This document shows, piece by piece, positions 6,960-30,069 of a DNA stretch of 32,000 nucleotides (its first letter is position 1; each line of letters begins with the position of its first letter). The stretch comes from Candidatus Heimdallarchaeota archaeon. Its GTDB lineage: Archaea; Asgardarchaeota; Heimdallarchaeia; Heimdallarchaeales; Kariarchaeaceae. The stretch lies in the NCBI GenBank assembly GCA_030149205.1, contig JASBSB010000006.1, positions 300,001-332,000 of the forward strand. The letters are read 5' to 3'. Both the position numbers and the translations under genes were made by a program. Below the pieces are notes generated by a model. The model was not told the DNA's origin. It saw nothing but the letters and a program-made list of their open reading frames with translations, and searched no databases.

Positions 6960-7950
6960 AACAATATAAAAAATATGAAATTATTTTGATTTAAATTAAT
7001 GAACATACAAATAAATCCAAACCAAAAATATGTAAATACAAAGCAAGAGAAAAAGAAATCATCATATTTATTCGATACATATAACGTACATATAATCTAA
7101 ATAATTATTTATGTTTAATTTTGACTAATATAATATATTATATCTTTTATAAAAAATTACTATAAGTTTTGTATTTGTGATTTTTAGTACCTAAACATTG
7201 CAAAATTTCAATAAATTTCAAGTTTTTCGCAACATGTTTAGTTTTGAATTTATTTTAATCCAAATATTTCCATAAAACATTAAATTTAGACTTATTATTT
7301 ATGAAATATATTGATTTTTAAATTTTTTAAATGTGGTTATTTTTAAATTTTGAATTAATATTTTGTAAATTAATTTTCATAAAATTATATAAATTAATGG
7401 TTTTTAAAATTATTATTCTTATAATAAAAATTTAGTAAATTAAATTTACTGGAATTATGTATATATGTTAAAATAGGTTGAAATTGCAAATTTATGTGAT
7501 CACTAAGATTTTAATTTAAAATATTTGAAGTATAATTTTACTCATCATTAGCTTTTTAATAGATATAATAAAGTTCGTAATATTTTTAGTGGTAGTGTTA
7601 AAAAAATACGATAGATTAAAACTTTTAATTTTTTACCTTTAATAATATATAATTTATTTAGACAAAAATAAAAAATAATTAATTTATTATTTTATTCAAA
7701 TAAACCCAATTAATTAGAATATTTTTAGATATTAAATTATTTTTTTGATAAACAAAAATATGACTAACAAATAATAAAATCATATTTCTGTTTATTGATC
7801 CAATAATACTTATTTAATTATAAATACTTTGAATATATAAAATAAACATATGAAATATTTTGTTCTCCTTATAAGTATTGAAATTGTGGGGTAATATATT
7901 AATGTCTGAATATATTCAACAAATTTAAAATTCTATCCAATTTGTTAGAA
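6960..7950. other. About 1 kb extremely AT-rich non-coding island
   Basis: Hand counts of 60-nt lines give about 8-20% GC (e.g. 5/60 at 7621-7680, 6/60 at 7321-7380) versus about 45% in a clpB line. No ORF of 60 aa or more in the track. Confidence 0.9.
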
Positions 7951-7952
7951 TT

Positions 7953-8747
7953 ATGAGTATCGATAATAATCAAGTGAACCTATTTCATGAGAAAATATTT
8001 TTGTGGTGGAAGGGAAACAAACGCAAACTTCCTTGGAGAGAGAACATTACTCCTTACAAAGTGTTGGTAAGTGAGTTCATGTTACAGCAAACACAAGTAT
8101 CAAGGGTCATCCCCAAATTCCAAAGCTTTGTTCAAAATCTTCAAGGTCTTAAAGAATTAGCTGCCTGTGACACGCCATCTCTATTAAAGTACTGGTCTGG
8201 ATTAGGGTACAACAGAAGGGCGTTGTATCTTAGGTCGGCAGCCAAAGCAGTTCTAAACGATCCCACAATCACATTGCATCCTGAAGAACTTCTCAAGATA
8301 AAAGGGATCGGAGATTATACCGCTCATTCAATACCAATATTTACCCATAACATTGATACTGTTACGATTGACACCAATATTCGAAAGGTACTCATACATG
8401 AGGGATTTGCAAACCTAGAGGCGAAACCTCGAGATCTTAAGAAAGTAGCACTAACACTCTTACCAAAAGGTAGATCAAGAGATTGGCACAACGCATTGAT
8501 GGATTATGCGGGTCAAAACCTTCGCAACTTTAAGCTGTTGCAAAAGAAGCAACCAAAGTTCTTAGGGTCAAAGAGAGAGGTTAGAGGGAATATTATCAAA
8601 CATTTGCTTCGGGTTAAGTCATTGAACTTGGATGAACTGAAAAAGAGGGTCGGGACAAATTTTATGGTAGTTGATCAGGTGATACAAGATTTGGTATCTG
8701 AGGGATTTATAACGAAAGTTGGCAACCAGTACCAGATAACGAAATGA
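7953..8747 (+). CDS. mutY: A/G-specific adenine glycosylase (MutY-like, HhH-GPD) lacking the 4Fe-4S cluster, with a C-terminal wHTH-like domain
   Basis: VSEFMLQQTQVSRV, WSGLGYNRRA, HhH LLKIKGIGDYTA, catalytic DTN and WHNALMDY are present. No Cys cluster follows. Confidence 0.85.
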   Translation: MSIDNNQVNLFHEKIFLWWKGNKRKLPWRENITPYKVLVSEFMLQQTQVSRVIPKFQSFVQNLQGLKELAACDTPSLLKYWSGLGYNRRALYLRSAAKAVLNDPTITLHPEELLKIKGIGDYTAHSIPIFTHNIDTVTIDTNIRKVLIHEGFANLEAKPRDLKKVALTLLPKGRSRDWHNALMDYAGQNLRNFKLLQKKQPKFLGSKREVRGNIIKHLLRVKSLNLDELKKRVGTNFMVVDQVIQDLVSEGFITKVGNQYQITK

Positions 8748-8751
8748 ATTA

Positions 8752-9999
8752 TTAGATTAGTTTTTGTAAGGTGTCCTCTGCCAGACCCTGTAATTCATTC
8801 ATTGGGAGTGCGTCAAGATCAGAGTAAGAAGAAACCAATGTTTTGATTGAGCGCTCAATCTGTCGGATGAACGAGAATGTGAAGGGGATATCTTTAGGAA
8901 GTAATATGGTGAAGACTGCTATTACAGTTCCCTTAAGTCTTTCATCAGTGACAGTGTCAGAGTGAATTTGGAAGCTGAAATTTATTCCATTGAAGTTGTA
9001 ATCTCGATCATAAGGAACAACAAACCATGATTGTCTGAAAGAATCATTCATCCCAGAAAGTGATATTGCTATCGTACTGTATAATTTAATAGTTATCTCA
9101 GGAATTTGGTACCTTTTGATAAATTCTTTGGTTATGGAATATGGTTGGGGACCATCATCAGAGAATGTGGAAAGCTGCCAACCAACTACTCCATTTTCAA
9201 AGAGATATTTGATATTTGAATGCGTAAAGGATATTCGTTCAATTAACACCAATGCAACAAAGTTTAGTACAATAGCAAGAGAAAAGGCAGTCACAAAGAG
9301 CATTACTTCAACAATTTCAGCTGCTGATAATAATTGAGATTGAGCTAACTGTCTCTCAAAAGTCAGTACCAAGACTCTAAATAGCTGGGCAAGAATCATA
9401 ACAAGTCCAAACACCCTTCCCACAATTATTCTTCTTGAGGAATCATCATTCATTCCAAACAGTCTAAGACGACCCCTGATAATGCTTGATTCACCTACAA
9501 ACAAGAAAACTAAGATTGAAAACACAAGGATAAGTGCCATATTGTAATATATATCACTAACTTCTACCCAAGATTTCGTTGTGATATCGTATTTAAGTGT
9601 ATAAAACTTGAAAACTGAATAGTTAACGAATGAATAAATTCTTAGGCTGATCAGGACCAATAGAGAAAAAATAAACAAATTTAGGATATAGTTGACACCA
9701 CTGTATTTTTTTTTCACCTTATAGTAGTAGTTTAAGGCATGAAGTGCGACCACAAAGAAGAAGAGAATTGAGCCCCAGAAATTAATTGTTCGAAACCATC
9801 CCGCATCTGCCCCCTTAGGAGTGACAATGATAGTGGTTTGGATAAGGGTAAATGTGAAGACAACTAAGTGAGTTAAAAGAACAAAGACCCGGAAGTAGAA
9901 AGCGCTGGTAATGGTATTTTGATAGAGTCTAATACCTGTAACTATAAAGACTACACCCATTAAAATTGTGATTAAAAGATAGAGGATATAGTTTAACAT
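8752..9999 (-). CDS. 7TM protein with cytoplasmic longin/uDENN-like domain, type A
   Basis: Seven hydrophobic helices in aa 1-255, then a soluble alpha/beta domain (GWQLSTFSDDGP...WFVVPY...DERLKG). Paralog of 11246-12520. The longin/uDENN call is an inference. Confidence 0.7.
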   Translation of the reverse strand: MLNYILYLLITILMGVVFIVTGIRLYQNTITSAFYFRVFVLLTHLVVFTFTLIQTTIIVTPKGADAGWFRTINFWGSILFFFVVALHALNYYYKVKKKYSGVNYILNLFIFSLLVLISLRIYSFVNYSVFKFYTLKYDITTKSWVEVSDIYYNMALILVFSILVFLFVGESSIIRGRLRLFGMNDDSSRRIIVGRVFGLVMILAQLFRVLVLTFERQLAQSQLLSAAEIVEVMLFVTAFSLAIVLNFVALVLIERISFTHSNIKYLFENGVVGWQLSTFSDDGPQPYSITKEFIKRYQIPEITIKLYSTIAISLSGMNDSFRQSWFVVPYDRDYNFNGINFSFQIHSDTVTDERLKGTVIAVFTILLPKDIPFTFSFIRQIERSIKTLVSSYSDLDALPMNELQGLAEDTLQKLI

Positions 10000-10001
10000 T
10001 G

Positions 10002-11189
10002 TTACACCAACGGGCTCAAAATTTTTGCCAGAGTATAATTTTCTAAGGGCGTATCTTCTAGCTGTTCATAGATGGACACGTATTTATGGACATAATCAAG
10101 GCTTTTCATTTGATGAGTCAGCTTGATAGGAATGGTTTGAGGAAAGACAAAATAGAAAAATACATTTACCAGATTACCCTGTTTATCTGGGAGTTTAACT
10201 GGCATAAAGACCACCTGTAGATTATTATTGTTTGGGAATGGTAAGGAAAAGACACCCAAATCCCGGAATTGGTTCTCTTCCAAGGAATTCTTTAATGTAT
10301 TACCTATAGCTGTGATGAAGCTCACCTCAAATGCAAGCAGATCTTTTCGAGAAATTTGATAATGCTCTTGAAAGCTGGAATTTGACTGGAGCTGTGAAAT
10401 ATTTAATTTATCGACTCGAAAGACGCCCCATCCAAAGATCCCAAAATCCATGAACCTTTTTATGTTATCAGTAAATTGAAACAGGGTCATAGGGATGAGC
10501 AATAGGCTTACGAAAAGGAGGTTGGTTGTTATCACACTATCCAAAAGAGTTATTTCCATAGCGGGGGCAGGAAACAAGATAACAAGGACAATTATGATTG
10601 GTTTTATTACAAAGAGCAGGGTAGTAACCAGAGCATAAATAACAGAATACTGATTACTCTCCTTTAGATTGGGCTTTACTACCAGGATGAATTTTCGGAT
10701 TAGGTAGAAATTAAAGAGGAGTATGAATGTATTTGTCAATGAAAGTAATACTGCTACTGTGTGATTTACATTAAGGACAAAAACCCCCACGTTCAATACT
10801 GACTCATTCGATCTTACAAAAACGAACTCTGAAACAGCAATAGGTAAAAGGAATGCAAAGCTGAAGGGAATAAAGAATCTGATAACAAGATGCATAAACA
10901 CAGATTTGTAGTCACTTAATAGGGAAATAAAAAGGAACAATAGTACCAATTCCAAGGAATTGAGTACCTTCACCAACGACAGATACCCCTCATTAATTGG
11001 GAGCTGAAGTGCATTGTCATAAGACAGCTTAAGAAAAGCTATGAGAGCGAGATTTGAGAAGAAAGCCATTATCCAAACTAAGAATTTTAATTGGGTGGCT
11101 TCTCTTAGTGTCATAATTGTCTCAAAGAGCAGCAAGAAACCAGCAATCCAGATTGCTGTTATGAAGAGAGTTATCTCAAGTTGGCTCAT
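10002..11189 (-). CDS. 7TM protein with cytoplasmic longin/uDENN-like domain, type B
   Basis: Seven TM helices, then GIFGWGV...LAFEVSFITAIGN...SLPFP...LPDKQG. Paralog of 12567-13754. Confidence 0.7.
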   Translation of the reverse strand: MSQLEITLFITAIWIAGFLLLFETIMTLREATQLKFLVWIMAFFSNLALIAFLKLSYDNALQLPINEGYLSLVKVLNSLELVLLFLFISLLSDYKSVFMHLVIRFFIPFSFAFLLPIAVSEFVFVRSNESVLNVGVFVLNVNHTVAVLLSLTNTFILLFNFYLIRKFILVVKPNLKESNQYSVIYALVTTLLFVIKPIIIVLVILFPAPAMEITLLDSVITTNLLFVSLLLIPMTLFQFTDNIKRFMDFGIFGWGVFRVDKLNISQLQSNSSFQEHYQISRKDLLAFEVSFITAIGNTLKNSLEENQFRDLGVFSLPFPNNNNLQVVFMPVKLPDKQGNLVNVFFYFVFPQTIPIKLTHQMKSLDYVHKYVSIYEQLEDTPLENYTLAKILSPLV

Positions 11190-11245
11190 CAGTCTATGTA
11201 AAGCACCATCGTTTTTATTTGTTTGTAAGCACTTTCAAACAGGGC

Positions 11246-12520
11246 CTACAAAATGAGTGAGAAAACTTTCGAAACTATACTATTTATCATTGCTTCAGTG
11301 TAAATTGGTATATCTATATCATGGAATCTGCTGAGATACCCCTCAATTTCTTGAATGTAGATCATGGTAAAGGGTGTTGATTCTGGAACTACCAGGGATA
11401 GAATGAATGGAGCCTTTTGTTCCAATCTGTCGTCCTTCAGCTCAGAATTTTGAACTGTGGTTTTGAGATTCAGTGTGGCTAAATTGTTATGAAATGGGAT
11501 AACAAACCAATTGTTACCTCCTTCATTATCACTCACTAAGCCACTGAGAGAGATTGTAATAGCAGAAAAGGTTTGAATATCTTCGACAGATAAGTTGTAG
11601 AATCTCTTTAGATTCTCGGAGACCGCATGAGTCTTTGGACCTGTGTTAGCTAGGGTGGAGGTAACCCACCCGAGGTAACCACTATCTAAAAGAAATTTGA
11701 TATTTTTTTTGTTAAATGTTATTCCGTTGGTGCTGAGAATAAATGTACTGGTGAAGATCATGGTAAAAATTAGTGAGGGAACAATGATAAGCATGTCGAA
11801 TAGGTTTTGCATGTTCAGTTCGAGTGTGATAAATGAATCTCCTGTAATAATTTCAGTGAAAATAAAACTAAGAATAGAGTACGCTGCTAGAATGCGGATG
11901 TACTTAAGATACGTCTTGAGTGAATTATAATTACCAAAAAATTTAAGCCTGGACAAAATAAATGACCTCTCACCCAGGAAGAACCAAATTACTAACAATC
12001 CTGTAACTGCATAAATTGAGATCAGGAATGGTGAGATGTAAGGATGCCAAAGTGCGACCTCTTGCATATACTCTATTTTGTAGAGGGGAAACTCTTGGAA
12101 ATCAATGAATGAGAAGGTGAGTATGGAGAATATTAGTGATACATCAATTATCAAGAGATTTAGCACCAAGGTTGACCTGCTGTACTTCCTTCTAACTCTG
12201 TAATAATATTTTATTATGATGTATAAGACGGATAGCAGAAGCAGTTGATTGATTAGAAAATCGTAGAATGGGAATGAGGGGTTGTTGAAATAGGAGTTTC
12301 CAACAAATTTGGCAACATAAGAGAGGGAGAACAAATAGACAGACACTAAAGCAGAGATATCTAGATAGTAGTCTGTAGATTTGGGAACGGTTGTTTTTCT
12401 TGTGTACTGTGCAATCAGATACATGAAACTAAAAGTAACTATGATGATACTTATCCAAAAGTATGTGTTGTTGACTGCCATGAAGTCCCTCAAATCAATA
12501 AGTGAATGATAACTATACAA
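11246..12520 (-). CDS. 7TM protein with cytoplasmic longin/uDENN-like domain, type A'
   Basis: Shares blocks with 8752-9999: YYYRVRRKYS/YYYKVKKKYS, LGE..I..RL..FG, NIK.L..G..GW, ISLSG, WFV.P, D.RL. Confidence 0.7.
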   Translation of the reverse strand: MYSYHSLIDLRDFMAVNNTYFWISIIIVTFSFMYLIAQYTRKTTVPKSTDYYLDISALVSVYLFSLSYVAKFVGNSYFNNPSFPFYDFLINQLLLLSVLYIIIKYYYRVRRKYSRSTLVLNLLIIDVSLIFSILTFSFIDFQEFPLYKIEYMQEVALWHPYISPFLISIYAVTGLLVIWFFLGERSFILSRLKFFGNYNSLKTYLKYIRILAAYSILSFIFTEIITGDSFITLELNMQNLFDMLIIVPSLIFTMIFTSTFILSTNGITFNKKNIKFLLDSGYLGWVTSTLANTGPKTHAVSENLKRFYNLSVEDIQTFSAITISLSGLVSDNEGGNNWFVIPFHNNLATLNLKTTVQNSELKDDRLEQKAPFILSLVVPESTPFTMIYIQEIEGYLSRFHDIDIPIYTEAMINSIVSKVFSLIL

Positions 12521-12566
12521 ATTTCAGTGAACTCTTTTATAAGCTTTCTTTAAAATAATTCAGAAT

Positions 12567-13754
12567 TTAACGAATTAGTGGGCTGATTATCTCCGACACC
12601 TGAGGTGATGTGATGTATTTGACATTTAAACTTTCATATTTTGAGTTTAGTCTATAGATACCTGCTTCTGACTCTCGGAGAGCAGAGAGGTTTAACTGGG
12701 TTCGTGGAGAAGTTATCATAAAAATTAGTAATGTTCTGAGTCTACCATTTTTATCGGGCAAATAAATTGGGAGAAATAGAATTCGATGGTTTTTTGAAAA
12801 TGGGAATGGAATTGAAAGATAACGGAGATATGTACCAGATTCTTTTTGAGCTAATGCAGTAAGAACGGAGGTTTCAAAGGCTAAAATTGATTTTTGTGTG
12901 ACATTATTTCTTTTGAGGTATCCATCAGAGATAAATTTCAATTTAGGGTTATTCCCTTCTATCTCGAGAATGCCCCATCCAATATTTCCTGAATCTATCA
13001 ACTCCGCAAGTGTCTCTTTCATATGAAATAAAACCTCAGGATATGCTATTAAAGTTATAATCAAAGTTTGGAGGCTGGTGGTGAGAACAATCATGGACAG
13101 TTCAAAGGAAACAGATGGAAAATTTGCGAATGTAATGAGAGATGCTGGGATAAGGATTACAAGCATCAGGTCTGAAGCAAATAACAAACTTTGAAGTCCT
13201 CTTCTCTGAACTTCAAATGTTAGTGAATATTTCCTGATAAGATATCTGTTTGAGATCAGTGCCATTGCACTTCCGGAGAGATAAAAAATTCCAATGATGT
13301 ACTCTAAGGGGATATTTTTTATTGAGGTGTTAGGTATAGAGATACTGCTGTAAGGATATTGATAGGGTTGATCGGAGAGGAAGATCAATGTGATAAATGT
13401 AATTAAGAGAGGGGAAAAAAATTTGCTAAATAAATGCATTTCAATTGATTTATACTGAATATTTCTGCTGATAAAAAGATAAATGACTATGGTCTCACTT
13501 ATCAAAAATACCTTGACAAATCCTAATAGGAGGGTGAATTTGACCGGAAGAATAGAATTTGAATGTAAATATAGAACTTCAGCCTCTATAAAGTAAAAGA
13601 GGTAAAGTGATGTAGCAACGGTTATTAATAATAAAATCAACCAAACCTTTTTTCTTTCTTTGTTTGGATTAAATAGATAGATGGCAGTACCCACTATAAA
13701 TGAGCCTAAATTAATGACTAATGAAATAACCAGCAGGATGATGTCTATATCTAT
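12567..13754 (-). CDS. 7TM protein with cytoplasmic longin/uDENN-like domain, type B' (start uncertain)
   Basis: Shares blocks with 10002-11189: VKV...E.....LFIS...YKS..MHL..FF.P, YLIRK, GWG, LAFE.S..TA, PFP, LPDK.G. The open frame extends upstream of the called GTG at 13694 with a hydrophobic TM1 (IDIDIILLVISLVINLGSFIV). Confidence 0.7.
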   Translation of the reverse strand: MDIDIILLVISLVINLGSFIVGTAIYLFNPNKERKKVWLILLLITVATSLYLFYFIEAEVLYLHSNSILPVKFTLLLGFVKVFLISETIVIYLFISRNIQYKSIEMHLFSKFFSPLLITFITLIFLSDQPYQYPYSSISIPNTSIKNIPLEYIIGIFYLSGSAMALISNRYLIRKYSLTFEVQRRGLQSLLFASDLMLVILIPASLITFANFPSVSFELSMIVLTTSLQTLIITLIAYPEVLFHMKETLAELIDSGNIGWGILEIEGNNPKLKFISDGYLKRNNVTQKSILAFETSVLTALAQKESGTYLRYLSIPFPFSKNHRILFLPIYLPDKNGRLRTLLIFMITSPRTQLNLSALRESEAGIYRLNSKYESLNVKYITSPQVSEIISPLIR

Positions 13755-13909: not shown

Positions 13910-14374
13910 TCACACCGATGAGTATTTATAGAAGAGCAGACTTAGAATGAAGAGAGTGTATGATGAGATAGCTGATAACATGCAGTACAGGCAGATGCTT
14001 ACCAGAATTGCAACTTGTATAAATATTAGTCCTGTAGAGGCCAGAAATCCTACGCTAGTTAAAGCAGTGATAAATTTAGGATATTGGATGTTCTTTTGTT
14101 GAAGAAAAGCTAAGACCTGTCTCTCGAACATGACAATTAGTATTAAACTCAGGTAGTAGAGCATTCCAAATATGGAAATAGGGAGTCCAATAATAGTTGC
14201 ATACTGTGAGGTTAATATTGCACCGCAGTCCACTGGAATCCCAAAGATGTTAGATATAAATTGAGTTGTGCATGCAGCTGGATCGCTGTAATGACTGTTG
14301 GTCAGGTAAAGTGAGTCAAAGAAGCCTACAAGTGCCACCAACAAAACAGATATTGAGAATGTCTTCTGGTTCAT
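13910..14374 (-). CDS. Vitamin K epoxide reductase (VKOR) family membrane oxidoreductase
   Basis: Loop cysteine pair (C...C-GAILTSQYA), G-LP-S-FG motif, active-site CLYC and multiple TM helices. Confidence 0.92.
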   Translation of the reverse strand: MNQKTFSISVLLVALVGFFDSLYLTNSHYSDPAACTTQFISNIFGIPVDCGAILTSQYATIIGLPISIFGMLYYLSLILIVMFERQVLAFLQQKNIQYPKFITALTSVGFLASTGLIFIQVAILVSICLYCMLSAISSYTLFILSLLFYKYSSV

Positions 14375-14685
14375 ACCCTTGTTTCTGAATTCGTTATATT
14401 AAGATGTTCAAGCAATTAGGAAATATTGTTCTGAATAGATTGAACCTTTAGTAGAGGGGTTATTGGGTGGGTAGATCATTGAGTCCATCATTTGTCCTTA
14501 GAAATTCTTTCTAAAACCTGAGGTTGTAATGGATTGTTTCTAAGAATAGGGATAATCAAACTGATTTAGACATTAAATACCAACAATTTTCAAGATGTTG
14601 TTCAGTCTGATTTTGATAAAACAGTGAATAAGTCATATCTCTTGGTCTGGAAGCTTCAAGTTTTTAGATATAGTGGATCGAAGGT

Positions 14686-14762
14686 TTATGATGTTATGAT
14701 GCTAAGATATGAATCTAATGGTTATGATGCTAAGTTATGATGCAAATGGTTATGATGCTAAG
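14686..14762. repeat. Short direct-repeat array with 14/28-bp period, core GTTATGATGCTAAG
   Basis: Exact GTTATGATGCTAAG at 14693, 14721 and 14749 (28-bp spacing), with degenerate copies at 14686, 14707 and 14734. Confidence 0.85.
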
Positions 14763-14772
14763 ATACTTATGA

Positions 14773-15480
14773 CTAGATTTTTGGTTTAAGTGATTTCTCT
14801 TTCCCTTTTTTTTCTGGTTGGGGTATGGATTCACTGTTTGGTTTTCGGTTGATGAAGAGGTAAAGTCCAACGAGAATGCTTCCTCCAATCCCTGCCTGTA
14901 TAATGGGGTTGCTGAACAGTGCACCTAGTACACTTGGAGGGGTTCCTGGGTTTCCAACATAATTATTTGTAAGGGTAGTGTATGAAACCTTTCCCTGAAC
15001 CAGGGGGGAAATATAATTATACAATGTATTGAAATCAGTAAGCCCATTCCAGCTTTTCACCAGATACCCATTGGGGTCGAAAAGAATCATGGTGGGAGTA
15101 CCAGTTATACCAAACTTTTTTGCAAAAGCATCTGACTTGTCTAGACCCATAACCCAAGAAGTTATGTGTTGAGCTTTGAAATCCTTTATCGTGGTCAATG
15201 TATCTCTAGATCCTGCGAGAGAAACCATCGTGAAATTTCCTGTGATTGCATTGTTTAGTTTTTCAAGGTCAGGGTGTTGTTGAATGCAGAAATGGCACTG
15301 TGTCCAGAACCATTCCACAAATAGCCACTTACCTTGATAACTGCTGAACAATACACTGTTTCCACCGAGATTTGTAAATCCAAGGTTCAGATTATAAGCC
15401 TGAGCCTGAGTTTGGTTCATGGAAAATACAAGAATAATTAGTGTTAATGTCAACAACAGACTTTTAGATTTGAATCTCAT
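14773..15480 (-). CDS. TlpA/redoxin-family thiol-disulfide oxidoreductase, exported, with a C-terminal TM anchor
   Basis: Signal-like N-terminus from ATG 15480 (MRFKSKSLLLTLTLIILVFSM), WTQCHFC CxxC, cis-Pro GTPT motif and a C-terminal hydrophobic helix. Confidence 0.88.
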   Translation of the reverse strand: MRFKSKSLLLTLTLIILVFSMNQTQAQAYNLNLGFTNLGGNSVLFSSYQGKWLFVEWFWTQCHFCIQQHPDLEKLNNAITGNFTMVSLAGSRDTLTTIKDFKAQHITSWVMGLDKSDAFAKKFGITGTPTMILFDPNGYLVKSWNGLTDFNTLYNYISPLVQGKVSYTTLTNNYVGNPGTPPSVLGALFSNPIIQAGIGGSILVGLYLFINRKPNSESIPQPEKKGKEKSLKPKI

Positions 15481-15774
15481 AGATACAATTTGATATTTGG
15501 GGTTGATTTGATAAACATTTGTTTTGTAGACCTGTATCACGAGTATTTATGGGTAATTGAGTATATAAGACTCTTAGAAATTCATGTGTAATGACAAAAA
15601 CATTGATCCCAATATATTCATTTAGGAGATGGGAGTCTTTAGAATGAAAGTAAGAGTCTTTGGTTTGAAAATACCTGAGAGCACATACATGGGCTATATA
15701 TAATTCTTAATGAAGAGGTGTAATACCCCTGTGAGTTTGGGAAAAATTCAAAACAATGAGGTTAAGTCAGAGCT

Positions 15775-16655: not shown

Positions 16656-17600
16656 GTGGGTACAACGCCAACTTGTTATGAATGTGAAGAGAAAGTTGCT
16701 ATTCCCTTCAAATGTAAACTCTGTGGCAACAGTTACTGTAGCAGACACAGGCTACCAGAGAATCATAACTGTACAGAGATCGGACATTATAACTCTGCTG
16801 AGTATAAGTCTGCTAAGGCAAGAGGGGTTTATTCTACATTAAAAGAGACTGCTCAACCAGAGAAGACGTCTCCCATCTTTCAATTTCCCAAAAGAGGTAC
16901 ACCTAGAACCTCCAGCACCAGTACAGGTGGTGGAAGGCATTTCAGAAATGCAGCGATGACACAGTTTGAAAATAGGTTTTACGAGAGGGCATTGCTCTCT
17001 CACCCTGATGTTATCTCATTTGGAAGAGAGAGTGTGGATCTGCTTGTTGCGTTTATTCTGATCACATTCGCAGTTTCATTTAATCGATTGGTCAGCGGAA
17101 CATATACAGGAGAAGATGTGTTGATACTGGCAATTGCTCTGGCACCTGCCTTTATTTTACACGAGCTTGGGCATAAATACATGGCTGTTTATCTGGGGAG
17201 ATTCGCCAGATTCACCCTTTTCAAGCGATTAACACTGATAACACTACTTATGGGCCTTCTTCCATTCTTTATTGGTACACCTGGTACAACTATTATTCAG
17301 GGTGAGGAGATGAACAAGCAAGAACTTGGTGTTACAGCTTTAGCTGGTCCAATGGTGAATCTAGTATTAGCCTTAGGAGGACTGCTTGTTCTTCCATTTA
17401 TTCCTTCTGGAATATTTTACACCGCTACTTTGATGATTGTTACAATTAATCTAATACTTGGCATATTCAACTTAATACCTGTTTGGGTATTAGATGGTAA
17501 GAAAATATTTAACTGGTCAAAAGGTGTCTATGGATTAACTCTGGTGACTTTCATAGCTTTATTGGTTTTTCAGGTATCTATTTTTGGTTTGCCTTATTAA
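16656..17600 (+). CDS. AN1-type zinc finger fused to a site-2 protease (peptidase M50)
   Basis: CYECEEKVAIPFKCKLCGNSYCSRHRLPENHNC matches zf-AN1. HELGH, AGP-VN and NLIP-WVLDG give the M50 HExxH and NxxPxxxxDG motifs. Confidence 0.92.
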   Translation: MGTTPTCYECEEKVAIPFKCKLCGNSYCSRHRLPENHNCTEIGHYNSAEYKSAKARGVYSTLKETAQPEKTSPIFQFPKRGTPRTSSTSTGGGRHFRNAAMTQFENRFYERALLSHPDVISFGRESVDLLVAFILITFAVSFNRLVSGTYTGEDVLILAIALAPAFILHELGHKYMAVYLGRFARFTLFKRLTLITLLMGLLPFFIGTPGTTIIQGEEMNKQELGVTALAGPMVNLVLALGGLLVLPFIPSGIFYTATLMIVTINLILGIFNLIPVWVLDGKKIFNWSKGVYGLTLVTFIALLVFQVSIFGLPY

Positions 17601-20416: not shown

Positions 20417-23400
20417 ATGAATACCAAATTCTTGCTCATTTTTGTATTAATTTTTTCAATTGGTATATTCATTACTCCAACTCAGAGTTATATGGATAAT
20501 AACCTTTATCCATCTCTGGAAACTCAAGCTACAGACAAAATTTTAACTAATAGCACAGTTATTGATGATCTGGAAAAGTTTCTGACTCTCACACAGGATG
20601 ATAAACAGTTCGCAATCAAATCAATGGATCAAGCATTTTATTTAGGTCTAAGTATAAGATTTATTGAGACAATTCAAAATCCACCTCAAACATTGGTAGG
20701 AGATGTTGAAGAATTAAAGCTAAGGGTTTTAACCTATATCAACAATGTCCGCAACACCAATGGAGGATATGGAAATTGGAGAGGGGCTAAAAGTTCTGCT
20801 GAATCTACAGTTCAAGCAATAGATGTGTACAACGCACTTGGATTTCCACAGAACTTCACCTCAAAACAGGCTAATGAGACCATCGGTTTCATGAACACAT
20901 TAAAAACTAATTTGGGAGGGTTTTATCCTCTACAGGATTGGGACGCACCTGACATCACATCAACTTATCGAGCAGTATACATACAGAATCTTTTAAACAA
21001 ACAGTTCAATGTCAAAGCCATCAACAAAACTGGAATTAAGCAATTTGTTCAGAACAACTACATCACGCCTTTCTTTATTTCTGGAGCTTCGGGATATTCA
21101 GAGGTAAAGGGAGGAAAACCAGAGGTTCTTGCATCATTGGATGCATTAGAGACTTTTCTTGGTTTGAATCAAACTGATCCTTACAGAAGCTCGGTTATCA
21201 GGTTCATCAATTCACTCACCTCACCTAACGGTGGGGTTGCAGGATTTGAGGGCAAGCTTCCTAAGACAGGGTATACTTCTGCTGCAATACAGTATTACCT
21301 CAGAATCAAAAATTATTTCCCCGGTAACCTATCCGAATTTAACCTTGGTTTTTTGGATAGAGCGATAGATTATTTATTGGGGAATCGGGCACCAGATTCT
21401 GGGTTTACTGCTGCAGACACAGACAGCACCCCCGAACTTAGTAGTACATATTTTGTGCTGAGAAGCATTTATGAATTAAAACAGAACAATCTTTGGAATC
21501 GCTCAGTAGACCTAACGGGTGTCTACTCATTCCTCTTGAGTGGTCATGAACCTACTTATGGGTTAGGTGAGTATCCCGGAGATATAGCAGAGTTGTCGTA
21601 TACCAGTAGAGCTGTGCTTTTAGGCAGACTGATCAATCGAACGGATTGGATGAGTCCAAAGCTGATAGATTATATTTTAAAAAGCTTTGATGAAAAGAAC
21701 AGTGGATTTGGGTACAGACCGGGAGGGACTGCGCGTATAAAGTACACTTACTACGCATTGGCTGCACTGCGAGCATTGCATCACCCATTTTCGAACATTG
21801 ATCTGATAGTAGATTTTATTCTATCAGCTCAGACCCCAGATGGTGGCTTTGGGCAGATAAGCAAAGCAAAGATAAGCTATATCTCTCACACATTTTGGGC
21901 TATAAGCGCGTTAAAATCCTTGGGTCAACTGACAACTCTGACACTTGATTTTGCACAGATCTATAATTGGTTACAAGGGTTGAGAGACCCTGTAACTGGG
22001 ATGTATAAGAATTCCATAACTTCACAACCGTCCATACTTTCAACCTATAGGGCCATTCAGATTATGACTTATCTGGGATATTCTGTCGATAGTACTGATA
22101 CTGTTCATCAATCAATACATCAGTATCAAACAACATCTGGAGGATTTGTGAATGACCTTACTAAGACCCTTGCAACAATGGAAGCAACATATTTTGCGGT
22201 GAGAACCATGAGATTGTTAAACACTACCTATAATGAAAGCAAGGTCTACAAATATGTTAGGGGTCTTCTTAATAGTGATGGAGCATTTGCTCTTCGGGAG
22301 GGATTCTCAAGCAGAGTTTCTTCCTCATTTTATGCGGTTTCACTACTTAGAAAGATTGAGGGGGTGTCTAAAGACCTGTCACCTATAGAAGGAGGACTAC
22401 CTGACTTGTTTGCCCCAATCATAGAACCTGCTTTTGTTGCAAATCTACGAAAACAAAACAAAATATCTGGTTCATTCTCTCTGACAGCCCAGGTCAAGGA
22501 TCCAGAGGGAAACGTCTCAGGGTCTTGGATAGAGGCAAAATGGCAGAGATATTCAGATAATCAGACATTCTCTTACAGAGAATCAGGCACTAATCTGGGG
22601 AGAGACCAATGGGAATTTACTGTCGGTCCTTTTAACCAGACAGGTGTTCTTCTGTTTAGACTCATAGCAACGGATCTAAACAACAACACAGCCACCACAT
22701 CGTGGTTGGCATTAGATACCACAGGGATACCTGTGGGTGGGGGAGTCTTTGCAAGCATCAATTGGGAACGGATAATTCTAAATGTCCTTCCATACCTGAT
22801 GCTCTTCTTTGCGCTAATTGAGATGTTCTATGAGCGTTCAAAGAAAAAAGAAATATTAAATGAGAAGGTGAAAATGGTGTATCAACCCAAAAATCAGGAA
22901 GGTGACATAAACTTCGAGATGTTCAGCGCATTGCTGGTGATACTAGCGATGGTGGTTCTAAGTTTTGTTGCCAGAATCTATATTCAGGATGCTTTAATAA
23001 TCATACAAAAGTCAATATTTCTCTTCAGATTCTTATTGGCTGTTGTGGTAATAATTATAACAAAATATGTGCTTGGATTAGACACCTACGGGCTTTTTGC
23101 CCCAAGTGTCTTAGTTATTGCAATGCTTCAGGTGGGCCCATTCTGGGGTTCTGTGATATTTTTCAATGTGTTTGGACTATTGTATATCATTAGATCGCTC
23201 ATGGAGCCCTTGAATTTTCCCGTTGGATTCAGGATTGGGATAATGATGGTCTTCAATGTTGCATTTCTAGGGGTGTTGGAGCTGATTGGAGAGGTTTATC
23301 GGATCCCCTTTCTAGCTCAGGCACTCTTTGTTCCAATCATTATCATGCCTTGGATAGCCGACAGATATATCTCTAATGCAAGACAGTTTGATCAATTATT

Positions 23401-24553
23401 CGCCTTTACAAGGTTAATCATCAGCCTTCTCATTACACTTCTTGCATATGTCTTTATGTCTAATTCTGCCTTGGTAACCTTTGTTGCTGTGAATCCTGAG
23501 ACTTGGGTGGTCTTAATCGCGTTCTTGGTCTTCTTTGGTAAATACCGAAAATATACCATACTTGATAAGAGGAGGTTCTACCGGCTATTTAGAATCAAAA
23601 ACACCCCAATGTCTATGATGATTAGAAACCGTAACTATATCGCACAATACAATCCACCAATAATTCATCCTCTGATCAACAAGTATGACATGAAGGGTCT
23701 CTTCGATAAATGGGGCGTAGCCACCGCTGAACTTTTGGCTGTTGTGGATAATGTAGACCAGCTTGATCCCTTGTTCAAGAGGTTAAGCACTGAGGTTGTC
23801 TTCAAGAACGGATTTGTCATTAAACCTTCTCAAAGTTATGGAGGCATGGGGATAGTTGTGGTACAGGAAGTGACACCTGAAGGGAATTTCAGGGTTGGTT
23901 CAGATATTTACCACCCAGATGCACTCAAAGAGGAGTGTAAACGAATTATACAGGGTGAGTATCTGACAGCACACACCACCTCAGAAAATGATATCATAGT
24001 CATTGAGGAAAAGATTAACCTTGCTGATAGCATGAAATCTATCTCTATTGGGCTTCCAGACATAAGAGTAATAGTCTTTAGAGGTATCCCAGTGATGGCA
24101 ATGGCAAGGCTTCCAACCAAGGAGAGTGACGGAAAAGCCAACCTAAAACAGGGGGCTATTGGAGCAGGAATTCATCTCTCTTCAGGTCTTATTTTTAGAG
24201 CTGAGTGGAAGACAAACCCCCTCAATATTCATCCTGACACAGGAAATGAAATCATTGGATATCAATTCACGAAATGGGATGAGATATTAGCTGTTGCCTG
24301 TCTGGCGCAGAAAAGCACTGGGTTGGGTTATGCAGGTGTGGATCTTGTACTCGGACAGAAGAATGGAGAGGAAAAGATCTATGTGCTAGAGATCAACAAG
24401 AGGCCCGGTTTGGAGATACAAAATATCAACCTTGCAAGCCTAATGGAAAGGTTAGATTATATAGAGGACAATGACCTTGATATGACAGACAAGTCACCAA
24501 CAGCAGTTGTTAGATATGTGAAACAGTTATCTAAAGAGTATTGGGAGGTGTAA
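20417..24553 (+). CDS. Fusion protein: signal peptide + prenyltransferase-like barrels + Ig-like + 7TM_transglut-type membrane domain + RimK-related (alpha-L-glutamate ligase-like) ATP-grasp
   Basis: Start moved to ATG 20417 (MNTKFLLIFVL), 14 nt after the upstream stop. About 11 GG[FY] repeats; GLDTYGLFAPSVL...PIII...DR...NPE...GKYRKYT matches the PF14402 pattern; RNRNYIAQYNP, VIKP, PDIRVIVF, MARLPTKESDGKANLKQG, HPDTG, GVDLV and LEINKRPGL match TIGR02291/PF14397. Confidence 0.88.
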   Translation: MNTKFLLIFVLIFSIGIFITPTQSYMDNNLYPSLETQATDKILTNSTVIDDLEKFLTLTQDDKQFAIKSMDQAFYLGLSIRFIETIQNPPQTLVGDVEELKLRVLTYINNVRNTNGGYGNWRGAKSSAESTVQAIDVYNALGFPQNFTSKQANETIGFMNTLKTNLGGFYPLQDWDAPDITSTYRAVYIQNLLNKQFNVKAINKTGIKQFVQNNYITPFFISGASGYSEVKGGKPEVLASLDALETFLGLNQTDPYRSSVIRFINSLTSPNGGVAGFEGKLPKTGYTSAAIQYYLRIKNYFPGNLSEFNLGFLDRAIDYLLGNRAPDSGFTAADTDSTPELSSTYFVLRSIYELKQNNLWNRSVDLTGVYSFLLSGHEPTYGLGEYPGDIAELSYTSRAVLLGRLINRTDWMSPKLIDYILKSFDEKNSGFGYRPGGTARIKYTYYALAALRALHHPFSNIDLIVDFILSAQTPDGGFGQISKAKISYISHTFWAISALKSLGQLTTLTLDFAQIYNWLQGLRDPVTGMYKNSITSQPSILSTYRAIQIMTYLGYSVDSTDTVHQSIHQYQTTSGGFVNDLTKTLATMEATYFAVRTMRLLNTTYNESKVYKYVRGLLNSDGAFALREGFSSRVSSSFYAVSLLRKIEGVSKDLSPIEGGLPDLFAPIIEPAFVANLRKQNKISGSFSLTAQVKDPEGNVSGSWIEAKWQRYSDNQTFSYRESGTNLGRDQWEFTVGPFNQTGVLLFRLIATDLNNNTATTSWLALDTTGIPVGGGVFASINWERIILNVLPYLMLFFALIEMFYERSKKKEILNEKVKMVYQPKNQEGDINFEMFSALLVILAMVVLSFVARIYIQDALIIIQKSIFLFRFLLAVVVIIITKYVLGLDTYGLFAPSVLVIAMLQVGPFWGSVIFFNVFGLLYIIRSLMEPLNFPVGFRIGIMMVFNVAFLGVLELIGEVYRIPFLAQALFVPIIIMPWIADRYISNARQFDQLFAFTRLIISLLITLLAYVFMSNSALVTFVAVNPETWVVLIAFLVFFGKYRKYTILDKRRFYRLFRIKNTPMSMMIRNRNYIAQYNPPIIHPLINKYDMKGLFDKWGVATAELLAVVDNVDQLDPLFKRLSTEVVFKNGFVIKPSQSYGGMGIVVVQEVTPEGNFRVGSDIYHPDALKEECKRIIQGEYLTAHTTSENDIIVIEEKINLADSMKSISIGLPDIRVIVFRGIPVMAMARLPTKESDGKANLKQGAIGAGIHLSSGLIFRAEWKTNPLNIHPDTGNEIIGYQFTKWDEILAVACLAQKSTGLGYAGVDLVLGQKNGEEKIYVLEINKRPGLEIQNINLASLMERLDYIEDNDLDMTDKSPTAVVRYVKQLSKEYWEV

Positions 24554-27595: not shown

Positions 27596-28807
27596 ATGAA
27601 GAATTCAAAAATACCACATGATCTTTTGTTAGAGATTGTAGAAGAGAAGCACCAGATGCTTGAAAAAATAATGGTTGAGGAGGGCATTGGTTGTTGGGTG
27701 GTCTTCATGAGAGAGACATCAATAAACCCAGAACCTGTTCAAAACCTCGTGATAGGTGGAGATATTGTCTGGGAAAGTGCTTTTGTATTCACCTCTATTG
27801 GAAAATTTCGAAAGATTGCCTTGGTTGGTAACTTTGATGCTAAAGCAGAGGAATCAAAAGGGATCTGGACAGAGGTTAGGTCATACGTTAACGGTATTTC
27901 TGATGAGCTGAAAACCTTAATCAAGGAGATCTCTCCAAATAGTATAGCAATAAACTATTCTGAGGATGATGTTAGTGCTGATGGACTTTCTCATGGGATG
28001 TATCTCAAGCTCAGAGAGATACTCCCCAACCAGAAATTTGTGTCAGCTGAGAGAATTATCCAAAGAATCAGAGCAAAGAAGACTGAAAGCGAATTGGAGC
28101 AGATTAAACTTGCAGCACAACTGACTGAGACAATCAACCAAAAAGCTATATCGAAAGTTCGACTTGGAATGACTGAAAGGGAGATCCAGTGGATATTTCA
28201 TCAGTTGATGGACGAGTATGAGGTTGAGGAGGCATGGCAAAGAGTTTCCTGTCCAGCCATCGATGCTGGCCCCGAGAAAGAGATGGGACATGTGGGGCCA
28301 ACAGACCTGTCAATTACCAAATATAACACTTTACACAATGATTTTGGAATAAGATACAATGGATACTGTTCTGATATACAACGAATGTGGTTTTTTGGAG
28401 AAGATGAAGAGATTCCTGAAATGTTGACTCATGCCTTTGAGACAGTTAGAACCGCAATTCACATCGCAGCCAAATTTATTAGACCTGGAGTCAAGGGGTT
28501 TGAGGTGGATAAAATTGCAAGGGATTACGTGATCTCCAGAGGGTATGAAGAATACAAACATGCGTTGGGACATCAGGTTGGCACCCAGGCACATGATGGA
28601 GGAACAATATTGGGACCAAAATGGGAGAGGTATGGGAAGCTCCCTGAGGGGATAATCGAGGAGGGAAATGTCTTTACTCTTGAATTATATGTTAAAACTG
28701 CTCACTTTGGAATGGTCTCCCTTGAAGAGATGATCATTGTAAGAAACGGTCTCGCAGAGTTCATTGTACCCCCTCAAGAAAAATTCATTACTATATCTCA
28801 TCATTAA
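27596..28807 (+). CDS. Xaa-Pro aminopeptidase/prolidase family (M24B)
   Basis: Metal-binding motifs DFG...GYCSDIQR, HALGH, AHD, TLE and SLEE. Confidence 0.93.
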   Translation: MKNSKIPHDLLLEIVEEKHQMLEKIMVEEGIGCWVVFMRETSINPEPVQNLVIGGDIVWESAFVFTSIGKFRKIALVGNFDAKAEESKGIWTEVRSYVNGISDELKTLIKEISPNSIAINYSEDDVSADGLSHGMYLKLREILPNQKFVSAERIIQRIRAKKTESELEQIKLAAQLTETINQKAISKVRLGMTEREIQWIFHQLMDEYEVEEAWQRVSCPAIDAGPEKEMGHVGPTDLSITKYNTLHNDFGIRYNGYCSDIQRMWFFGEDEEIPEMLTHAFETVRTAIHIAAKFIRPGVKGFEVDKIARDYVISRGYEEYKHALGHQVGTQAHDGGTILGPKWERYGKLPEGIIEEGNVFTLELYVKTAHFGMVSLEEMIIVRNGLAEFIVPPQEKFITISHH

Positions 28808-30069
28808 CCTAGTTCTCTTAGAATCAACTCTCTCAAACCAGGTGGTTCAAGCATTGAAGTCTTTTCAAGGAGTGTTCGGTTTTCGTACACTTTAAGAAAT
28901 TGATAAACGTCCTTAGATAGTTGATTTAAGATGATATCCAAAAATTTGCTCAATCTCTCAGCAACTACTGCAAACAACCATATTTCATCTCCAACCTGTA
29001 TCTTTTTAATTATGACTGCCCTCATATCCATACGAACAACGATCTCTTCATTATTAAGTCCATTCAAGGAGTTAAAATACATGAAGATTGCACTAACAAA
29101 TCCACCTTTCAAAAGTTTATTTGAGGTCGATGTTTTAGTCAACTGAAATTGATACACCGGTACCCCTCCATTTTTAATTATGAATAATTCGTATACAGGT
29201 GAAACCAAAGTTGTCAAGAAGTTTGGGTCTCTTAGGTAAAGTATTAGCAAGGGAATAAAGAACAGAGGGATTACTTCACTTCCAAAAAACACCTTTGGAA
29301 ATCGGAATAATGTGTATGTGGTCATGAGAATCAAGGCCTCAACAAGCCCAAGAACTAGAGTGAACTGAAATCGAGCTGAGCGTGTAAAATCTCTGGAATT
29401 TAAACGTAGATTTAAGCAGTTATAATAAGAATAAGCAGCATAAATTGAAACAAATAGGCCACCAGCAAAGTAAATTGTAAATTGAATAAAGGGAGCGATT
29501 ACAGGGTCTTGAAAATAATCAACTCCGCTGATAGAATAGACGATTGTTAAAAAAATCGCTGGTGCAACCCCTATGATTATTATGAAGGATTTTAATATTG
29601 TAACTCGTAAATTTCGTTGGTATTCTAAATGTAAAAAGGTGAAAAATATAAAGAGGGCAAAGAAAAGAAACCAGAAATAATCGTGAAGATGGTAATCTAA
29701 ATAATCTAATTTGTCAGGCACAAACGCTTTAGAGCTTGATTGAACATAAGCACTCCAAAAATAAGATAATGACACACTTAAGATACTAAGAGCAAAATAC
29801 TTGCTGACTCCCAACCTTTTAATTCGAATCGCTTGGAGCACAAAGATCAAATCAAACAGGAAAAGGATTAACCCCGGTACAACAAAATATAGAGGTAAAT
29901 GTTGCCATTCCATTGTTCGAATTACAAAGTAGTTGCTGGAATAAACCGGTTCAGAAAAAAAGTAGACAGCACTTACATAAAGTAGTTGAATTACCAAAAC
30001 GGGAATCCCTATGGTTTTTACAACCTTCTTCGACCCATCTTTGAATCCAACCAACTCATATGGATTCAT
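28804..30069 (-). CDS. Multi-TM (about 8) protein with C-terminal longin-like domain
   Basis: Hydrophobic helices to about aa 280, then VYELFIIKNGGVPVY...LLKGGFVSAIFMYF...LFAVVAE...LNQL, a longin-like beta-beta-alpha-beta-beta-beta-alpha pattern. Confidence 0.7.
   Translation of the reverse strand: MNPYELVGFKDGSKKVVKTIGIPVLVIQLLYVSAVYFFSEPVYSSNYFVIRTMEWQHLPLYFVVPGLILFLFDLIFVLQAIRIKRLGVSKYFALSILSVSLSYFWSAYVQSSSKAFVPDKLDYLDYHLHDYFWFLFFALFIFFTFLHLEYQRNLRVTILKSFIIIIGVAPAIFLTIVYSISGVDYFQDPVIAPFIQFTIYFAGGLFVSIYAAYSYYNCLNLRLNSRDFTRSARFQFTLVLGLVEALILMTTYTLFRFPKVFFGSEVIPLFFIPLLILYLRDPNFLTTLVSPVYELFIIKNGGVPVYQFQLTKTSTSNKLLKGGFVSAIFMYFNSLNGLNNEEIVVRMDMRAVIIKKIQVGDEIWLFAVVAERLSKFLDIILNQLSKDVYQFLKVYENRTLLEKTSMLEPPGLRELILRELG

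Follow-up and report, generated by a model that had tools for sequence, protein, structure and literature searches.

What is the role of a protein that holds two prenyltransferase-fold barrels on the outside of the membrane and an ATP-grasp amide ligase on the inside? The question is raised by an uninterrupted open reading frame (ORF; 20417-24553, plus strand, 1378 amino acids and a stop codon) called on a 32,000-nucleotide stretch of a Candidatus Heimdallarchaeota archaeon genome (contig JASBSB010000006.1, positions 300,001 to 332,000), which is referred to as the window and whose first letter is position 1. Here, we show that this fusion protein forms the core of an archaeal cell-envelope cassette of three genes, a cassette that is the counterpart of two bacterial proteins, the seven-transmembrane (7TM) protein RloB and the ATP-grasp protein RloC. 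In Pseudomonas aeruginosa, RloB is composed of an inactive transglutaminase and the 7TM domain, RloC is a cytoplasmic ATP-grasp protein and RloA a secreted retropepsin (bioRxiv 10.1101/2025.03.18.643919, PMC12239564), and in Pseudomonas the RloB/RloC pair has effects on osmotic tolerance, on susceptibility to antibiotics and on the formation of biofilms. In addition, a Shewanella study has linked a 7TM/inactive-transglutaminase gene to membrane-vesicle production. The barrel-bearing 7TM-ligase cassette is an undescribed archaeal version of this poorly understood Rlo envelope system: in the papers that we could search, we found no description of the cassette in Asgard archaea, nor any mention of the Pfam names or of 7TM, inactive transglutaminase and ATP-grasp in combination.

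The domain composition of the fusion is supported by profiles and by structure prediction. Pfam recognizes Prenyltrans repeats in four stretches between about residues 50 and 650 (E 5.5e-40, above the gathering score), 7TM_transglut (PF14402) at residues 873-1057 (E 7.5e-15; 55.5 bits against a gathering score of 25; profile positions 63-247 of 248) and ATPgrasp_ST (PF14397) at residues 1070-1350 (E 5.1e-48; 164.1 bits against a gathering score of 31.4; profile positions 2-277 of 278), and NCBIfam matches the 7TM part of RloB. The paper that defined the 7TM_transglut and ATPgrasp_ST domains is reportedly that of Iyer et al. 2009. An AlphaFold2 model of residues 24-790, built on 27 homologues (predicted local distance difference test, pLDDT, 89.4; predicted template modelling score, pTM, 0.87), contains two alpha/alpha toroids followed by a beta sandwich, and a second model, of residues 655-1378 (pLDDT 81.9, pTM 0.61), contains the sandwich, nine membrane helices and the ATP-grasp. 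Hydropathy likewise places nine transmembrane (TM) segments between residues 783 and 1043. All 14 N-x-S/T sequons of the fusion lie within residues 45-756 and none beyond, and in the 27 homologues the ectodomains hold 350 sequons against 223 expected from composition, compared with 70 against 67 in the remainder of the proteins. Seven lysines or arginines (K/R) are found in the loop at residues 805-837, and a further K/R-rich stretch directly follows the ninth helix. Given this sequon distribution, the K/R-rich stretches and the hydropathy profile, the topology is N-out/C-in, with the barrels and the immunoglobulin (Ig)-like domain outside and the ligase in the cytoplasm. The initial annotation, made from the letters of the window, had drawn the domain spans within one ORF correctly to within a few codons, and the anatomy it proposed, with barrels and Ig-like domain outside, a membrane domain and an amide ligase inside, is fully supported by Pfam, the models, the sequons and hydropathy. 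As to the start site, the public gene call P0002 (1353 amino acids; start at 20492) begins 25 codons after the ATG at 20417 and thereby drops the signal peptide, and the ATG at 20417 is the better match to the N-termini of the homologues.

An ORF of this composition could be a chimera of assembly or annotation, and one Heimdall relative does have the barrel-Ig and 7TM-ligase parts as separate ORFs (locus L017, with an in-frame stop in genome G069). Against this stand 27 clusters of full-length homologues, retrieved from different studies by a word-indexed search of 5.8 billion proteins (39-48% identity, 96-100% coverage, same Pfam set), and the same uninterrupted ORF in 13 genome loci. A single 89-kb contig at depth 80, from the probable source sample, spans the whole stretch. 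In an independent metagenome from a vent (X2), contigs of mostly 95-99% identity run without indels across three junctions, namely barrel/Ig, TM/ATP-grasp and the stop/start boundary with the next gene. Support across the domain junctions, a point raised at the outset, is thus given by the 89-kb contig and the X2 contigs, the ORF is not a misassembly, and on the sequence data the chance that it is an artefact is negligible. The named homologues come from Odin-, Thor- and Heimdallarchaeota metagenome-assembled genomes and bear only generic names ('hypothetical protein', 'sugar-transfer associated ATP-grasp domain-containing protein'); beyond these we did not find the barrel-bearing architecture annotated, in agreement with its being described initially as unusual.

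The cytoplasmic domain keeps the catalytic residues of its family and is predicted to be a competent RimK-like ligase. K1136, E1197, D1309, E1325 and N1327 are invariant in 27 of 27 homologues, and hhalign of the family profile against Escherichia coli RimK pairs K1136, D1309, E1325 and N1327 with K141, D248, E260 and N262, which we take to be the ATP/Mg ligands of RimK, as well as pairing the D-I-R and N-L-x-x-G motifs; the ATP/Mg ligands, whose possible loss the initial annotation had considered, are therefore retained and aligned to those of RimK. The nearest solved folds in VIA-align are ArgX/LysX (Z 16.7, root-mean-square deviation 2.8 A over 215 residues) and then RimK (Z 15.9), all enzymes that add amino acids to C-terminal carboxylates, and further matches include cyanophycin synthetase, D-Ala-D-Ala ligases and TTLLs. 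The likeness to RimK is one of fold only, as the RimK family TIGR00768 scores 22.6 bits, below its cut-off of 143.4, and neither the ligase domain by itself nor the A2 profile retrieved a PDB sequence at E <= 0.01. NCBIfam TIGR02291 (rimK_rel_E_lig, an equivalog of RloC type) is matched with E 5e-63 and 212.9 bits, below the cut-off of 314.2, and the fusion ligase is, to judge from this score, related to the curated equivalog and outside it.

The membrane domain shares residues with its relatives across two domains of life: G887, G892, P896, G911, R926, R939, P973, P1027-E1028, G1041 and R1053-F1054 are kept in 66 members (36 bacterial, 30 archaeal), and E955, E959 and D982 are invariant within the Asgard group only. 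An Atlas feature search with residues 780-1062 returned only 7TM_transglut clusters, with a score of 0.75. The R-F motif is part of a cytoplasmic helix just past the last TM helix; in the fusions the ligase starts there, and the separate bacterial 7TM proteins end a few residues beyond it. In a number of loci from Patescibacteria and similar bacteria (L034, L043, L057, L067, L070, L074, L076, L080, L083, L084), the 7TM proteins end in EE, EEE or QE after the motif, and at most of these the neighbouring ligase gene encodes about 780 amino acids, which by length alone is the length class of ATPgrasp_ST-MATCAP fusions. The Asgard fusions carry their acidic residues at the end of the ligase instead of at that of the 7TM domain.

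In the window, the fusion gene is the second of three tightly spaced genes, separated by 13 nucleotides from the gene upstream and by 1 nucleotide from the gene downstream (Table 1), and the same three genes are found in the same order, with different flanks, in Heimdall, Odin and Thor contigs. The upstream protein is a paralogue of the fusion ectodomain, with 25% identity over 600 residues to residues 1-790 of the fusion, zero cysteines and 10 sequons, and a barrel gene occupies this upstream position in every archaeal locus with enough contig, with locus L028 as the sole exception. The downstream protein matches Pfam Transglut_core (E 1.3e-9; 38.7 bits against 23), carries 10 sequons and has an intact triad of C208, H250 and D266, of which C208 is its sole cysteine; the histidine and aspartate are present in all aligned archaeal orthologues and the nucleophile is a cysteine in all Asgard orthologues, whose tails also share the motif K-L-x-x-L-L-x-P-[D/E] close to the C-terminus. 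No small ORF for a precursor peptide is found within the cassette, where the gaps of 13 and 1 nucleotides leave no room for one, and an RloA-type retropepsin (PF05618) has no match in the cassette or in the organism's own genome (93.5% complete). Complex prediction for the nine-TM (9TM) and ligase part with the transglutaminase gave a score of 0.51 against 0.01 for the best control, with a contact agreement between runs of at least 86% and a partner pLDDT of at least 82. Of the pairs used for calibration, 58 of 80 solved complexes and 2 of 110 mismatched pairs attained that mark, and scores up to 0.60 occurred in only 7 of those 80 solved complexes and in both mismatches that passed; the models thus weakly suggest that the 9TM-ligase contacts the transglutaminase.

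Table 1. Features of the fusion protein and of the two genes that flank it (positions in the window; aa, residues of the fusion).
Feature	Position	Strand	Residues	Evidence and remarks
Upstream gene, 763 amino acids	18112..20403	+		Signal peptide, Cys-free double prenyltransferase-fold barrel, Ig-like region, C-terminal TM anchor; Pfam Prenyltrans E 2.7e-53
Signal peptide or signal anchor	20417..20485	+	aa 1-23	Hydropathy peak 2.21 at aa 1-19; hydrophobic N-terminus common to homologues
Alpha/alpha toroid 1, extracellular	20552..21484	+	aa 46-356	AlphaFold2 model, pLDDT mostly >90; Foldseek, RabGGTase/GGTase-III beta subunits, E ~2e-9, target template modelling score 0.75, 17% identity
Alpha/alpha toroid 2, extracellular	21515..22357	+	aa 367-647	Pfam, AlphaFold2 model, Foldseek
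Ig-like beta sandwich, extracellular, adjoins membrane	22418..22720	+	aa 668-768	Strands in both models; VIA-align Z 10.7, root-mean-square deviation 2.6 A over 100 residues against Ig-like domain of 5ak7
Nine TM helices	22763..23545	+	aa 783-1043	Last ~seven form the 7TM_transglut domain; hydropathy and second model
Cytoplasmic juxtamembrane helix with R1053-F1054 motif	23558..23593	+		Motif family-wide
Cytoplasmic ATP-grasp ligase, ATPgrasp_ST, RimK-related	23609..24466	+	aa 1065-1350	Pfam, TIGR02291, hhalign, VIA-align
C-terminal helix and short tail	24467..24550	+	aa 1351-1378	Tail acidic in most Asgard orthologues
Downstream gene, 376 amino acids	24555..25685	+		N-terminal anchor, sequon-rich extracellular Transglut_core, C-terminal TM helix, K/R-rich cytoplasmic tail

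The extracellular barrels have the alpha/alpha toroid fold of prenyltransferase beta subunits (Foldseek; Table 1) and, as a pair, are matched by Foldseek to squalene-hopene cyclase. Together with the strong Pfam Prenyltrans match, this would favour working isoprenoid enzymes, either prenyltransferases or cyclases, in a protein that builds a lipid-linked product. We consider this very unlikely, as there is no cysteine in residues 1-1173 of the fusion, nor in the ectodomains of 16 of the 27 homologues, so that the zinc-binding cysteine of protein prenyltransferases is missing, the DxDD, DDxxD and CxEQ motifs are all missing from the ectodomain of the window's protein, and the barrels, being extracellular and rich in sequons, are away from the pools of prenyl diphosphates. 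The barrels thus resemble protein prenyltransferase beta subunits and class II terpene cyclases in their alpha/alpha toroid of Prenyltrans repeats, and squalene-hopene cyclase in their double-barrel layout, and differ from these enzymes in being extracellular, sequon-rich and Cys-free, without a zinc site or DxDD motif. The polar residues that are conserved in them belong to the repeated structural motif of Prenyltrans repeats, and we draw no conclusion from them about an active site. The barrels are probably not enzymes and presumably serve as binding modules; the lipid binding suggested for them in the initial annotation finds no support, and neither does prenyl transfer, given the lack of cysteine, DxDD and DDxxD. 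The model of residues 24-790 also matches the fold of chain P2 of the secretory-translocon entry 9n9j (E 6e-7), and archaeal Atlas clusters whose members have both Prenyltrans and Ribophorin_II N-terminal matches, a hint at a common fold for the extracellular barrels of archaea and an oligosaccharyltransferase subunit's luminal domain.

How the genes are arranged in other genomes was assessed in a locus survey with one genome per species, scored with hidden Markov models from our own alignments. At 13 Asgard loci, the order is a barrel gene, the barrel-Ig-9TM-ligase fusion and the transglutaminase gene, with genes that abut or overlap. At six Thermoplasmatota loci, Promethearchaeota locus L021 (in which the barrel match is cut at the contig start) and locus L004, the barrel gene is followed by a 9TM-ligase gene and the transglutaminase gene, and at L023 (Thaumarchaeota), L026 and L028 (Thermoplasmata) the 9TM-ligase and transglutaminase genes are present without a barrel match. 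In Porticoccaceae, Binatia, Patescibacteria and others, a 7TM gene is followed by a ligase gene. A wider search, in which a profile of residues 655-1378 was run against 1.84 billion representatives, gave 3230 matches, and Pfam analysis of a sample of these revealed seven Asgard full-length representatives, 7TM-ligase fusions of about 545-580 residues without an ectodomain, metagenomic fusions of about 820 residues with an N-terminal Transglut_core before the 7TM and ligase domains, and two further forms, one that ends in a subtilase and one that carries TPR repeats. An archaeal cluster of 7TM-ligase fusions is likewise present in the Atlas, as are clusters from bacteria that join the ligase to an aspartyl protease or to MATCAP. 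The initial view of 7TM_transglut and the ligase as being encoded, as a rule, by separate genes therefore stands for the sampled bacteria and fails for Thermoplasmatota, for single Promethearchaeota and Thaumarchaeota genomes and for many metagenomic proteins of ~820 residues: archaea commonly have the 7TM-ligase fusion, and what is unusual is only the form with barrels. Across these arrangements, ligases of the family recur beside, or fused to, peptidases of four folds (retropepsin, MATCAP, subtilase and transglutaminase-like). A separate observation is a 912-residue protein with 7TM, ATP-grasp and C-terminal subtilase (Peptidase_S8) domains at locus L006 (6001-8739, P0049), near which a gag-asp-protease-like gene and another S8 peptidase are encoded. 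When 400 genomes of the window's phylum, the Asgard archaea, were sampled, 18 of them (about 5%) had a match at E <= 1e-20; the share was 6 of 90 among high-quality genomes and 12 of 85 among genera. The barrel-bearing system is thus patchy and accessory in Asgard archaea.

In a maximum-likelihood tree built from 86 ligase-domain rows, with midpoint rooting used just for the drawing, a bacterial and an archaeal group are separated with support of 99/93, and all full fusions form one clade (100/99), whose sister is L004 (100/98), a locus with an unfused barrel-Ig gene directly upstream of a 9TM-ligase gene. Because the full fusions form a single clade and its sister has the unfused parts as neighbours, the tree fits a single origin of the fusion from adjacent barrel-Ig and 7TM-ligase genes. 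Three rows within this clade lack the full fusion, of which two are cut by contig ends and the third is split by a stop codon. This third case (L017 3681; G069:C102) has the barrel-Ig and 9TM-ligase parts as separate ORFs and yet is nested in the clade of full fusions, and represents either a secondary split, a pseudogene or a sequencing error.

What, then, might the cassette do? Apart from the Shewanella study, the only experimental work that we found concerns RloABC of Pseudomonas, where the RloA retropepsins are secreted, cut runs of at least eight glutamates in vitro and require their polyglutamate (polyE)-binding residues in vivo, and where a triple rloA mutant dies in low osmolarity and is rescued by deletion of rloB or rloC (bioRxiv 10.1101/2025.03.18.643919). 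From this rescue it follows that whatever the ligase/7TM pair produces has to be removed by a polyE peptidase in the periplasm; how RloB and RloC work chemically was left open by the authors (bioRxiv 10.1101/2025.03.18.643919). The initial annotation had suggested either a ligand-gated ligase or a synthase-exporter; both are compatible with our findings, and the Rlo work indirectly favours a product that acts outside the membrane. The sequences themselves show a competent ligase inside that is joined to the 7TM domain, barrels and an intact transglutaminase-fold enzyme outside, and the joint inheritance of all these parts. Our best explanation, which we put forward tentatively, is that an acidic peptide is made by the ligase where the membrane domain opens to the cytoplasm, and that the barrels and the transglutaminase handle the product outside. 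In this proposed model, the RimK-like ligase would use ATP to add amino acids, most likely glutamate, and so assemble an acidic chain, an oligo- or polypeptide, at the 7TM domain's cytoplasmic mouth, from where this domain would pass or present it outward; the non-catalytic barrels would hold the peptide outside, and the Cys-His-Asp transglutaminase-fold enzyme would trim it or transfer it onto surface proteins, in the role that the secreted polyglutamate-cleaving retropepsin RloA has in Pseudomonas. The model draws its support from the Rlo genetics, the cleavage of polyE and the pairing of the ligase family with peptidases of four folds, and weakly from the complex prediction. A bolder version, in which the cassette is a new non-ribosomal peptide-polymer machine whose 7TM translocon extrudes a polyglutamate-like chain that is captured by the barrels and fixed covalently to the Asgard surface by the transglutaminase, is, in our view, unlikely.

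Several points weigh against the acidic-peptide model. To our knowledge, no family member, the Rlo proteins among them, has been assigned a product, a substrate or a transport activity, and the proposed amino-acid specificity derives solely from a distant kinship with RimK, with TIGR00768 and TIGR02291 both matched below their cut-offs and no sequence match in the PDB. The 7TM domain has no recognized transporter fold (the wide VIA-align search was filled by ATP-grasp and Ig matches and so does not bear on the fold of this domain), and few of its polar residues are conserved family-wide (R926, R939, E1028 and R1053), while the low pTM of the model of residues 655-1378 makes the arrangement of the domains uncertain. 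The nucleophile of the transglutaminase is a serine in Thermoplasmatota (L020-L028 and L079, with an alanine in L028) and in Promethearchaeota L021, and such orthologues may represent either a version of the fold with a Ser-His-Asp triad or one that is inactive. Finally, hhalign detected no similarity between the archaeal transglutaminases (A5) and the N-terminal domains of bacterial RloB (A6), with a probability of 0.15%. Given this value we do not claim that the archaeal transglutaminase is the active ancestor of the RloB pseudo-enzyme, and an evolutionary link between them is unproven.

The Pseudomonas rlo genetics fit outside-in signalling equally well, in that a peptidase might remove an activating ligand, and the fusion could correspondingly be a receptor-gated ligase, in which an extracellular ligand, possibly one that the transglutaminase-fold enzyme produces or degrades, binds to the barrels and the Ig-like domain, and the 7TM domain transmits the signal to a ligase that modifies a cytoplasmic target. 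An ectodomain followed by a 7TM domain and a cytoplasmic enzyme is the classic layout of a prokaryotic receptor, and the outside module is exchanged between lineages (inactive transglutaminase, barrels or none) over a constant 7TM and ligase, as sensor domains often are. We nevertheless regard this as doubtful, since minimal archaeal forms without an ectodomain of their own still come with the transglutaminase and a barrel protein encoded separately, the cassette includes no conserved gene for a cytoplasmic target, and secreted RloA cuts polyglutamate, a RimK-type product, which ties the outside enzyme to the chemistry of the ligase. A substrate on the inside is also assumed in another explanation, in which the ligase glutamylates a C-terminal tail in the cytoplasm, be it the acidic one of the ligase itself or the conserved one of the transglutaminase, and so tunes the enzyme complex outside. 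This would resemble the modification of RpsF by RimK and of tubulin by TTL/TTLL enzymes, and protein C-termini are where the enzymes with the nearest folds, RimK and LysX/ArgX, all act. In Patescibacteria, the separate 7TM proteins have EE or EEE as their last residues, the last six residues of the Asgard fusions contain a mean of 2.6 acidic residues, compared with 0.5 in stand-alone ligases, and the Asgard transglutaminase tails share the conserved motif described above. These counts come from related rows and are non-independent, however, and the motif is absent outside Asgard archaea; moreover, the window's protein ends in W-E-V, the Thermoplasmatota forms end in basic residues, and a periplasmic RloA could not reach a cytoplasmic tail, which makes tail glutamylation quite improbable.

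The remainder of the window contains several further features. A VKOR-family membrane protein adjoins a secreted-type thioredoxin/redoxin protein (13910-15540, minus strand), and the two are likely an extracytoplasmic disulfide-forming pair, although the neighbouring surface proteins are nearly Cys-free. Eukaryote-like genes of the kind that marks Asgard archaea include a small GTPase of the Ras/Roc family (5491-6060, minus strand), a zf-AN1 finger fused to an M50 peptidase (16656-17600, plus strand) and a protein with a longin-like domain (Intu_longin_1, E 2e-4; 28804-30069, minus strand). Four consecutive genes encoding proteins of 375-424 residues have no Pfam match at E <= 0.001 (8752-13694, minus strand), and a region of about 1 kb with 16% G+C (7001-8000), located between a 184-residue ORF and an HhH-GPD glycosylase gene, contains no ORF of at least 80 amino acids.

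For the study of the Rlo system, the archaeal fusions can serve as a Rosetta stone, as they show that the 7TM domain and the ligase work as a single physical unit, of which in Asgard archaea the outside barrels are also part. The outside partner can, furthermore, be a transglutaminase-fold enzyme with an intact catalytic triad, which offers concrete constructs and predictions for biochemistry. The cassette also points to an unstudied, patchily distributed system of cell-surface modification in the closest prokaryotic relatives of eukaryotes. If the peptide-polymer reading were true, some Asgard archaea would have a peptide coat or tag, and the long-sought function of RloB and RloC would be revealed.

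Among known systems, the CapBCA(D)/PgsBCA machinery for poly-gamma-glutamate synthesis offers an analogy only, with a cytoplasmic amide ligase, membrane subunits that export the polymer and an extracellular enzyme for anchoring or cutting. CapB has a Mur-ligase fold, the membrane proteins CapC and CapA are unrelated to those of the cassette, and CapD belongs to the gamma-glutamyl transpeptidases; no homology to the fusion is known, and general Pfam and NCBIfam scans of the window's proteins, which included no dedicated search, gave no match to the CapB, CapC or CapA families. RimK, a poly-alpha-L-glutamate ligase with the retropepsin RimB as its partner, and LysX/ArgX are closer, as they share with the fusion the ATP-grasp fold (Z 15.9-16.7) and the pairing of a ligase with a peptidase, and their ATP/Mg ligands align. 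In sequence RimK is distant, and it is a soluble enzyme that acts on ribosomal protein S6, whereas the fusion ligase is welded to a membrane domain. The closest comparison is with RloABC. In the sampled bacteria the 7TM domain and the ligase are encoded by adjacent genes, in contrast to the single polypeptide of the fusion, whose outside module consists of two prenyltransferase-fold barrels and an Ig-like domain in place of the inactive transglutaminase of RloB. The archaeal transglutaminase is separate and has its triad intact, there is an extra free barrel protein and no retropepsin, and the host is an archaeon without periplasm or peptidoglycan. In both systems, the membrane domain belongs to the same Pfam family (7TM_transglut), with shared family-wide residues, and so does the ligase (ATPgrasp_ST), and both combine an outside module, a 7TM domain and a cytoplasmic ligase with a hydrolase-fold enzyme outside the membrane, encoded by tightly linked genes.

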